12,845 nt of DNA from positions 1 through 12,845 of the forward strand of contig JAHLWP010000065.1 of NCBI GenBank assembly GCA_019057865.1, read 5' to 3'. The stretch is from Promethearchaeota archaeon. GTDB lineage: Archaea > Asgardarchaeota > Lokiarchaeia > Sigyniarchaeales > SOKP01. Both the position numbers and the translations under genes were made by a program. Under the pieces are notes generated by a model. It worked only from the letters and a program-made list of their open reading frames with translations. It was not told the origin of the DNA and did not search any database. Every line of letters starts with the position of its first letter. Position 1 is the stretch's first letter. Positions 4,495 through 11,684 of this stretch are shown one piece after another.

Positions 4495-4740
4495 TTAATT
4501 AGTAGTATTGGCTACATTTCTAATCGCAATACAACTACCAGATTTCTCCTCACCAGCAAAGTCCCAGATCAATAACTTTATTACCAGACCATCCATTTCT
4601 AAGACTTTAGTCTCAAAATCAACTCCAATAGTCTTGCTAGAATCTGATATAAATACATTAGTTATGTATCTCTTTCTTAATGTAGTTTTACCAAAACCAG
4701 CATCCCCGAAAATAACTACTTTGAAAAGCACATCAAACAT
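4495..4740 (-). pseudogene. Truncated paralog of the Rab-like GTPase (G1-G3 only)
   Basis: First 65 codons are about 93% identical to 1738-1933. Homology ends after WDFAGEE and is followed by 16 unrelated codons; G4 and G5 are missing. Confidence 0.9.
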
Positions 4741-5148
4741 GTTAATCCTATTTTATCTCCTAATTATTTCTTAATCTCCTTACTCTATAGGGACTTTAAA
4801 AGTGTAATATTTCTGTTATGCTTTTACACACAACAACCCTAAACCCTTCCCTAAATGTTGAATAAATACGCACTTTTTATTTTATAAAAATACAATGATA
4901 AACATAATAACATTCCTATTTAAATCTTTCTTCCATTATTAACCAGTATTTCACTTTTTTCCCAAAAATTAATAGAAAATTGTGTTATCGCAAGAAATTT
5001 CGCTGTTATTCCTTTTAGTCCCGAGAATTGAGGGAAAAAGATTTATTTGATTCTTCATTTCCAAACTTGTATATTTCAATACAGGAAACGTTACTGAACT
5101 TATTATTCTTAATCATCAAAATTAAAACAAGTATAAATTTAATTTTAA
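4545..5148. repeat. Direct repeat copy 2 of 1738-2342
   Basis: Offset 2807/2806 nt with one 1-nt indel; about 92% identity by manual count. Confidence 0.97.
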
Positions 5149-6629: not shown

Positions 6630-7409
6630 CTATAAATTGTTTTGTATAAGTTTATGGAGAAAATAGCCGATACCTAAATAACTTATTTCTATTGATTTTT
6701 CCTTTTTATCAACAGGATTAGGATAAAGGTTAATCGCAGAAATTTTTTCTAATTTTTGAATAAATCCATTTATAGCACCTCGGGATATAGTAGAATTGCG
6801 TCTAGATTCCAATGCTTCTTTTATATCTTCTAATGAAACATACTTTTTTCGATTGGTTAATAATGTATTCTCATTGAATGATAATTCTAGTCGAAAGAAT
6901 TCATTATAATCATGATAATCATCAAAGAAAAGCTCTAAAAATTCAAATTGCTTCTCTGTTAAAGAAGGAAATGGAACTGTGATTAATTCTACGTTAGAGT
7001 ATATCCCCACTTCTTCATTCTTTTCATAAATAAAATCTCCATGAATGATTCGAGTATTCGTAATGGAACATGCGCTATAAAACCAAATATCCATATAACG
7101 TAATCCTCCAGATATATTTACAGTAATATTATCAAATCCGTTGAGTTTTTGTTGGTAAATAAGATGAATTAATTCTGCAATGGGTTTTGTTTGGATGTGA
7201 AAATCGAGTTTCGCATTCTCAACCTCAATCCGCCGTTCTTTATAATAGTTATTTAATTCATCCAATACTTTTTTAGCTTCAAGTGTTCCTGGAAGTGGTT
7301 GTCGTTCAGTTATGAAAATCACTTTATGAACGATTTCTTTATCAATAGAAAATATTAATTTTGAAGTTGTATGTCCCACTAAAATAAGTTGACAATACTT
7401 TTCAGTCAT
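6630..7409 (-). CDS. Csa3-like transcription regulator: N-terminal CARF domain plus C-terminal MarR-type winged HTH
   Basis: Rossmann beta1 LILVGHT, CARF motif ITVNISGGLR, linker FPSLTEKQFEFL, HTH SLEDIKEAL..ISRGAINGFIQKLEK and wing NPVDKKEKSIEISYLG. No cas genes or array in the window. Confidence 0.8.
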   Translation of the reverse strand: MTEKYCQLILVGHTTSKLIFSIDKEIVHKVIFITERQPLPGTLEAKKVLDELNNYYKERRIEVENAKLDFHIQTKPIAELIHLIYQQKLNGFDNITVNISGGLRYMDIWFYSACSITNTRIIHGDFIYEKNEEVGIYSNVELITVPFPSLTEKQFEFLELFFDDYHDYNEFFRLELSFNENTLLTNRKKYVSLEDIKEALESRRNSTISRGAINGFIQKLEKISAINLYPNPVDKKEKSIEISYLGIGYFLHKLIQNNL

Positions 7410-7422
7410 TCCAAATCATCCT

Positions 7423-7535
7423 ATATTACTAATTACATTACAAATTAATAAATTAGTTCTTTGTTTATAGTTAAAATTACTTTCTCATAAACATGTATAT
7501 TATATAGAATATATGACCATAAAAAAGTATATAAA
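7423..7535. promoter_or_regulatory. Divergent promoter module copy A: minus-strand TATA (about 7444-7451), imperfect palindrome 7492-7515, plus-strand BRE/TATA AAAAAAG-TATATAAA (7521-7535)
   Basis: About 84% identical (97/115 columns, manual count) to 11202-11316, with a canonical archaeal BRE-TATA arrangement. Confidence 0.75.
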
Positions 7536-7579
7536 TGAGGATGGGTTTGTGATCATGTAATTTTCAATTTTTCAAACAA

Positions 7580-7750
7580 GGAAGAGAAAAAAATAGGGTC
7601 AAAACCATGACCTCTTACTACCAAAAGGCAACCTTGCTTTTCAAGGGGTATTCCCGATTGGAGGATACTCCTTTTTCACCCTAGGGGGAGGGAATAAGGG
7701 AATCATGGATAATCTCAAGCTTTGAGATTGCCCTATTTTCACTTCTTTCC
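7580..7750 (+). ncRNA. Candidate structured RNA or long 5' leader (nested multi-stem), family unrecognised
   Basis: 43% GC (73/171) amid very AT-rich intergenic DNA. Stems: 7590-99:7730-39, 7605-10:7703-08, 7612-17:7695-7700. Hairpins: 7624-41, 7643-73, 7711-29. G-U pairs favour the + strand, and it lies downstream of a BRE/TATA. Confidence 0.55.
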
Positions 7751-7784: not shown

Positions 7785-8099
7785 ATGGGAAGAGCATTTG
7801 GTATAGTAGCAATGATCTTTGGCTCGATTAGTATACCAATTTGCGTGGCAATAGGGGCTATTAGTTCTATAATTAATTTCTATAGTTTATTACTGGGAAT
7901 GCCTGACATCCTAGCTCTATTTTTTATAATAGGTTGTCTAATACCTGCCATCGCAATTATCTTCGGGATAATCGGTATTATTAAAGATGATACTAAAGGA
8001 CTTGCAATAGCTGGGCTGATCCTTGGAGCCATCGCTTTAATTTTAGGTCTAATTATAAGTTTTGTGCTTACCAATTTGTTTAGGGGATTTATGCCATGA
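7785..8099 (+). CDS. Small integral membrane protein (3 predicted TM helices, DUF4190-like)
   Basis: AFGIVAMIFGSIS..AIIFGIIGIIKDDTKGLAIAGLILG pattern. ATG 7785 is preferred over TTG 7722, which lies inside the structured element. Confidence 0.75.
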   Translation: MGRAFGIVAMIFGSISIPICVAIGAISSIINFYSLLLGMPDILALFFIIGCLIPAIAIIFGIIGIIKDDTKGLAIAGLILGAIALILGLIISFVLTNLFRGFMP

Positions 8100-11201: not shown

Positions 11202-11316
11202 ATATTTCTAATTACAATTCAAATTTATAAATTAGTTCTTTGCTTATAGTCAAAATTATTTCCTAGTAAACATGTATGATATATAGTATATATATGATCA
11301 CGAAAAAGTATATAAA
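11202..11316. promoter_or_regulatory. Divergent promoter module copy B (palindrome 11271-11296, BRE/TATA CGAAAAAG-TATATAAA 11301-11316)
   Basis: Direct repeat of 7423-7535. Confidence 0.75.
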
Positions 11317-11373
11317 AGAAAAATATTAAATATGTAATTTTTAAAAAAAGTGCAATTAAGGTAAATAAAATCC

Positions 11374-11475
11374 ATGAAATCCACAACCAAAAAGACAATT
11401 TTCCTACTATTGGGTATTGTTTTTCTATTTAGTCTACTTTTTAATCTACCAAGTGGGAGGTCTATTGAGAGATAG
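11374..11475 (+). CDS. 33-aa hydrophobic peptide MKSTTKKTIFLLLGIVFLFSLLFNLPSGRSIER (small membrane peptide or truncated secreted-protein start)
   Basis: ATG downstream of promoter copy B with SD-like AAGGT; basic N-terminus plus hydrophobic core. Not in the supplied ORF track. Confidence 0.5.
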   Translation: MKSTTKKTIFLLLGIVFLFSLLFNLPSGRSIER

Positions 11476-11684
11476 CGGTATATATCTCCAATGGCTAGAA
11501 GTATTTGCCAAAAATCATGAATTTTGTGCCTCCTTCCTACTTCATTACAAATTAAAAAATCATTTAGAAAATAATCAACATTACTGGCTACAGCTCTACA
11601 TTAATCAAGCTGAAGAAAATGGTGATATTCTATTAATTAGACAGCCTGTAATCTCCTGTTACAGGAAGAAATAACATTTTAATA

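Follow-up and report, generated by a model that had tools for sequence, protein, structure and literature searches.

The segment between positions 7580 and 7750 on the + strand of the window (the whole stretch of 12,845 nucleotides that was analysed) is a genuine conserved folded RNA of one Loki-type Asgard lineage, absent from the catalogues. As both of its ends form the cut signal of archaeal tRNA introns, the bulge-helix-bulge (BHB), the element is probably cut out of the leader of a message and closed into a ring. This BHB register constitutes the most informative feature of the element.

The minimum-energy fold of the + strand of 7580-7750 was −61.4 kcal/mol (z −4.13). None of 200 shuffles folded as low, and a z of −4 was reached by none of 120 random windows of the same genome. 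The − strand folded more weakly (−54.2 kcal/mol, z −2.83). A first-pass annotation made from the sequence had described here a GC-enriched, multi-branched RNA-like element on the + strand, different from tRNA, SRP RNA, RNase P RNA and known riboswitches, and this description held up well: its GC content is 43%, compared with 21% upstream and 30% in the whole window; every helix that was listed is present as part of the + strand minimum-energy fold; and an Rfam search of 7580-7750 gave no match. The + strand was confirmed by the many G-U cells in the alignment of homologues, in addition to the better fold and a BRE/TATA promoter upstream. Each genome carries one copy of the element at the same type of locus, and no second copy was found in this genome; being single-copy, it is not the MITE that had been considered as another identity for it.

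Searches with both flanking proteins and with DNA yielded 28 distinct full-length homologues, located either in genomes that belong to a single Promethearchaeota genus or on metagenome contigs, with identities of 54–99% (mean 72%) and a mean folding z of −3.4; all of them are of one origin, and counts over them do not represent independent events. In a 25-sequence alignment the structure kept 91% of the cells paired, whereas slid-alignment controls kept 38–60%, and 16 pairs had changed on both sides. The compensatory changes that carry this signal lie in three helices: the outer stem (99% of cells paired, 4 of 8 pairs changed on both sides), a long hairpin at 7643-7673 on the + strand (8 of 10 pairs changed on both sides) and a side hairpin at 7716-7730 (+), whose family register YAAGC:GCUUR is complete in 23 of 25 sequences, with 98% of cells paired. 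The other inner helices of the first-pass annotation are real in this copy, several of them being clade-specific rather than family-wide: CCAUGA:UCAUGG is complete in only 4 of 25 homologues, the AAAGGCA hairpin in 3, and CUCUUA:UAAGGG and an 8-bp register of the side hairpin in one each. A partial divergent homologue (L313:1-112), from which the long hairpin is deleted, retains the core word together with the side hairpin and the 3' part of the BHB. Of the 135 genomes of this Promethearchaeota family, 6, all from one genus, gave full matches to covariance models, compared with none of the 150 that were sampled throughout the phylum, and viral contigs matched neither the neighbouring CARF protein (see below) nor the element pattern. 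A search of genome contigs by sequence pattern was too loose, its matches being mostly due to chance.

The outer stem and the next one also exist as annotated, except that they had been drawn as two plain helices, missing the BHB register. In this register the outer helix is formed by 7580-7585 and 7744-7749 (5–7 contiguous pairs in 28/28 homologues), the central helix by GAAA at 7586-7589 and UUUC at 7737-7740 (4/4 paired in 28/28), and the inner helix by 7593-7598 and 7731-7736 (4–6 bp in 24/28), all on the + strand, with the 5' arm of the latter overlapping the first of the words in common with a multicopy RNA family of about 122 nt. The first bulge, AAA at 7590-7592, varies between AAA, AAG, AAU and GAG, and the second, ACU at 7741-7743, carries 11 changes at its positions 2 and 3. 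The closing stems are a canonical + strand BHB in all 28 homologues (24 hBHBh' and 4 hBH by the published rule), always with a 4-bp central helix flanked on opposite strands by two 3-nt bulges, both located on its 3' side. EndA grips the first base of the bulge (PMC12397907), and this base is A in 27 of 28 homologues for bulge 1 and in 28 of 28 for bulge 2. Cuts predicted from this geometry at 7591/7592 and 7742/7743 would release an intron or circular RNA of 151 nt (7592-7742 on the + strand; 138–152 nt in homologues), which folds at −47.8 kcal/mol when circular folding is applied.

Parsimony placed 16 of the 18 changes in the BHB within the six bulge bases among its 16 positions (p 0.021, a value of modest strength that is uncorrected for the roughly three registers tried). 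The register was fixed after the data had been seen, and runs of A and U permit several. Nine homologues were gathered after the BHB idea arose, and all nine fit. Moreover, no indel was found in any homologue within the run of seven purines and the 3' half of the BHB, whereas other runs of the element have indels. As controls, such a motif was admitted by 2 of 260 random long-range stems of the genome and by none of the 31 members examined from the ~122-nt family; a published chance rate, obtained with looser rules, is 5–7% (10.64898/2026.10.13.758758). The bare pattern is common (2,411 matches in the genome), and the proportion of such matches with formed helices (71 of 500) was left unused because it is biased by windows cut at the motif ends. 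An earlier register, AAAA/UUUU (intron 7593-7741), was discarded as it gave 18 full motifs compared with 24 for GAAA/UUUC, and a nested mini-intron inside the long hairpin was also rejected. The BHB conformer lies 3.6 kcal/mol above the minimum fold in this copy (0.4–6.6 in homologues, mean 3.5), with values of 2.2 and 0 kcal/mol for the control conformers of a 23S intron and the 5S ends, respectively. The key BHB pair has a probability of 0.01–0.07, and the register of the outer helix is degenerate in this copy, with a mean pair probability of 0.11. On the basis of this geometry we consider it likely that the element is processed at the BHB.

The enzymes for such processing are encoded by the host, which carries two EndA subunit genes (PF01974, on C71 and C69) and one RtcB gene (PF01139, on C75), and BHB-shaped inserts are found elsewhere in its genome, in rps12, 23S, 5S and tRNA genes. 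A 30-nt insert in rps12 (contig C27:24866-25219, L296) restores the reading frame when removed, and another one of 30 nt lies in the 23S gene (contig C16, near 341). The 5S gene (contig C63, near 32438, − strand), which an Rfam search of the genome did not find, is permuted between BHB halves and contains a nested BHB insert of ~30 nt. A genome-wide scan for BHB inserts of ~30 nt gave no clear length peak.

Upstream of the element, a promoter was recognized at 7514-7555 (+), with a TGAYCA box at 7514-7519, BRE at 7521-7527, TATA at 7528-7535 and a second box, TGATCA, at 7550-7555 (+), near the inferred start at ~7557-7562. The TATA box precedes the BHB central helix by 51–53 nt (58–60 in the clade of this copy) in all 28 homologues. 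Divergent from the RNA, a gene on the − strand (6630-7409) encodes a CARF-wHTH regulator (HFX_2341/Csa3-like), whose Pfam match to HFX_2341_N is below the cut-off (E 3e-6), with weak matches to Csa3_N, MarR and TIGR01884 and no convincing match among solved structures. The gene adjoins the 19 homologues that were reached by way of its protein, and most of those reached from the downstream gene. L264 and L265 lack it; retention of the promoter without the CARF gene was seen in two homologues. Relatives of this protein encoded at five other loci (L103, L110, L087, L108 and L114) face other genes across a similar divergent promoter, namely cas3, an OLD/MADS-like ATPase gene and other apparent nuclease genes, suggesting that the genes opposite these relatives are defence-island cargo. 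As the relatives precede cas3 and the OLD/MADS-like ATPase gene, the CARF-HTH protein would be expected to control the divergent promoter here too, and the TGATCA-type boxes constitute its possible operator. The genome also contains a gene with a SMODS domain, as well as a weak Cas10-like match.

The gene downstream of the element on the + strand (7785-8099) encodes a hydrophobic DUF4190-like membrane protein of 104 aa, with a Pfam match below the cut-off (E 0.002), and is the usual but not obligatory neighbour. In other homologues the gene at this place encodes a CBM96, ParB or zinc-ribbon protein, and in one homologue nothing co-oriented is found nearby. Given that the downstream gene varies, the RNA is tied to the promoter and not to the cargo.

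The explanation that we favour, with moderate confidence, is that a tRNA-type leader intron gives rise to a structured circle with a job of its own. According to this scheme, the transcript would start at the promoter shared with the CARF-HTH regulator, which would control it, and would then fold, so that EndA could cut after the second base of each bulge. A ligase, probably RtcB, would close the inner 151 nt into a circle, and ligation of the exons would leave a short leader on the downstream cargo gene. The circle would finally bind a partner through its best-conserved inner word (7618-7631, +; consensus CCAAAAGRCAA), which is common to the core of the ~122-nt family and is a candidate antisense site. 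The partner could be the ~122-nt RNA itself, bound by pairing, or the same protein that this RNA binds. That the circle or its precursor would be the selected product is argued by the covarying helices and invariant words inside it, at the same time that the downstream gene varies.

An alternative that we find rather unlikely is that the element stays unspliced and acts as a linear small RNA or leader whose ends pair across a 3x3 loop and whose pyrimidine tail is a terminator; its BHB register would be incidental, and the ~122-nt family would have it as a derived relative. This would fit with the loop form being the minimum-energy fold, with the U-rich 3' end and with the two words that occur in the same order in the ~122-nt family, itself devoid of BHB. 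Nevertheless, the drawing with a 3x3 loop leaves 13 cells unpaired compared with 4 for the BHB register, shows no concentration of changes (p 0.43) and requires that the supposed 5' loop bases never change while the supposed pairs do, and the spacing is strictly fixed. If splicing does take place, its purpose could be the control of the downstream gene, in such a way that translation is turned on by removal of the stable fold and of an upstream start codon, a role that has been suggested for HVO_1309, with the circle as waste. An ATG, GTG or TTG is indeed found at the same place in 24 of 28 homologues, 42 nt separate the predicted 3' cut from the start of the downstream gene, and HVO_1309, a gene with a leader intron of this type, is down-regulated under endA repression (PMC7714728). 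We regard this purpose as improbable, since a disposable intron needs neither invariant inner words nor covarying inner helices, and the gene to be controlled changes among homologues or, in one of them, has no co-oriented counterpart nearby.

The switch behaviour proposed by the first-pass annotation fared worse. It relied on a local hairpin, GGTCA-aaacca-TGACC at 7597-7612, that exists in this copy and excludes two of the long-range stems, and conservation of unpaired purine-rich words could also be expected from a riboswitch-like leader alternating between both forms. However, the hairpin is complete in only 1 of 28 homologues, has a pair probability of ~0 and costs 8 kcal/mol, and is a chance feature of this copy; as, in addition, Rfam holds no match and the downstream genes belong to no common pathway, a riboswitch is very improbable. 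Hardly credible is, finally, that the element is the folded mRNA of a small peptide, in the style of type I toxins, or a mobile miniature element, despite the pairing of its 5' and 3' ends, the short ORF and the homology to the signal-peptide-coding start of a CBM96 gene family. Changes in this ORF are distributed by codon position as 41/29/29, most of them alter the residue, and its length ranges from 5 to 47 codons; it is under no protein selection, and a mobile element is at odds with a single copy at a fixed locus.

With respect to known systems, the portions of the literature surveyed name only two archaeal BHB introns that do not belong to precursors of tRNA or rRNA, those of the crenarchaeal cbf5 pre-mRNA (as cited in PMC7714728) and of the HVO_1309 5'-UTR of Haloferax volcanii, the latter being a 46-nt intron cut by EndA that gives a circular product (Schwarz et al. 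2020, PMC7714728). The element resembles HVO_1309, its nearest precedent, in having a tRNA-type BHB in an untranslated leader, predicted here and experimental in that case, and differs from it in its longer intron (138–152 nt), in its multi-branched interior with covariation and invariant words, and in having a variable downstream gene and a promoter shared with a CARF-HTH gene. It shares with cbf5 and with archaeal tRNA and rRNA introns the same 3-4-3 motif and the predicted enzymes but, unlike them, lies outside a coding region or stable RNA, with exons that form only a short hairpin leader. No RNA with an independent function is known to be released from the cbf5 or the HVO_1309 intron. Literature searches, the scope of which left most subscription papers outside, returned no description of the element.

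Functional RNAs do arise from BHB processing, such as the box C/D guide from the tRNA-Trp intron of haloarchaea and the circular SRP RNA of Thermoproteus. The predicted circle would resemble these and the permuted 5S in that the excised circle is the conserved product. In contrast to them, the element has no intact C/D boxes, which together with a longest rRNA match of 8–9 nt, as in shuffles (the 23S being only partly assembled), led us to reject a C/D or H/ACA guide, and it shows no similarity to mature 5S; a profile match to the doubled 121-nt mature 5S circle, sought in a test of low power for a permuted 5S paralogue, was not obtained. Two other candidates were dropped, a SECIS because AUGA is not conserved and a K-turn because several homologues, among them this copy, have lost its GA pairs. 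If the scheme is true, a conserved, structured circle made by EndA and RtcB would exist in the closest prokaryotic relatives of eukaryotes, in parallel to eukaryotic tRNA-intron circles and to the non-spliceosomal mRNA splicing of XBP1/HAC1. It also provides two exact predicted junctions and a means to approach the strand, and the partners, of the ~122-nt family.

At other loci, the start of a secreted CBM96 gene occupies the same place behind the same promoter, and the identity between its leader and signal-peptide codons and the initial ~105 nt of the RNA reaches ~60%. Copies of the RNA group in a single clade, separate from the CBM96 coding copies. The element is, then, a structured RNA of shared ancestry with a signal-peptide-coding sequence. 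Most starts of CBM96 coding alleles pair with the linkers of the ~122-nt family better than >99% of 3,540 start regions, a result that would also be expected from shared ancestry alone. At 11202-11475 the window carries a duplicate (84%) of the promoter region 7423-7538 and, behind it, a stop-broken start of the CBM96 family from 11374 onward.

The ~122-nt family was found through weak model matches, and its 26-nt core occurs in 93 of the 135 genomes of this Promethearchaeota family, as against 0 of 265 other genomes searched. Four copies are located in this genome (C9:86849, C36:343, C43:23876 and C64:8254), with members also at L315-L344, and no Rfam match was obtained. Roughly one member in four has a flank that repeats the purine-rich linker in inverted orientation, and beside one member lies a fragment of a group II intron (RF02012, L315:1584-1763). 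The family has a GACUCCUG closing stem of its own and two hairpins, all lacking in the element, and no BHB, for which it showed no enrichment (17 observed, 19 expected). Both have two short words in common, in the same order, and 33 of the 34 members scored higher against the element profile than 99% of shuffles, these scores being low (1.7–12.8 bits, shuffle maximum 9.1). Full membership of the element in the family was rejected, as it keeps just 11–14 nt of the 26-nt core plus one word.

Tests of the strand of the ~122-nt family favoured the one opposite to that displayed in promoter-like sites (10 vs 2), in A-C against G-U cells (8 to 4) and in folding, which was better for the opposite strand in 23 of 34 members, whereas a test of U-runs pointed the other way. 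The family is thus probably read from its opposite, pyrimidine-rich strand, which would make the element antisense to its U-rich linker. The word at 7618-7631 can form a 14-bp duplex with that opposite strand, and the changes A>G or C>U, compatible with wobble pairing, account for 33 of its 35 variant cells; counted by distinct types of change the figure is 5 of 6, compared with 46% elsewhere, which is only suggestive. On average, the predicted gain on dimer formation is −8.5 kcal/mol when the partner is the opposite strand and 0 when it is the displayed one. It is ~0 in the clade of this window, where the word is locked in a local hairpin; a more open site is predicted for homologues such as L063 and L074. 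The shared words and the probable strand of the family raise the idea of the circle as an antisense decoy. In its complete version, a regulator-controlled circular RNA made from a leader intron would cover the U-rich linker of the ~122-nt RNA, its origin being the 5' end of an mRNA for a secreted protein, in which the same sites occur, a proposal that we put forward as speculative and doubtful. The logic of such a decoy would be that of sponge RNAs, eukaryotic (ciRS-7/CDR1as) or bacterial and derived from mRNAs (SroC), in which a stable RNA offers a site complementary to a small regulatory RNA; the element has no homology to them, a different predicted biogenesis and one or two sites. The word GGGCGAAAT was also detected outside long ORFs on contigs C11, C57, C61, C79, C87, C27 and C54, in two cases with the core word, possibly representing another related set of RNAs or targets of the ~122-nt family.

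Other features of the window include a duplication (92%) of a small Rab/Ras-like GTPase gene and its upstream region (1391-2334 and 4495-5140), the second GTPase copy being shortened to 81 aa, and a fragment at 11487-11640 of a separate protein-coding family that has several copies in relatives of the genus. Between 8377 and 10296, the window encodes a protein of 639 aa without Pfam match, which carries 15-bp repeats of E/K/R pentads at both ends.
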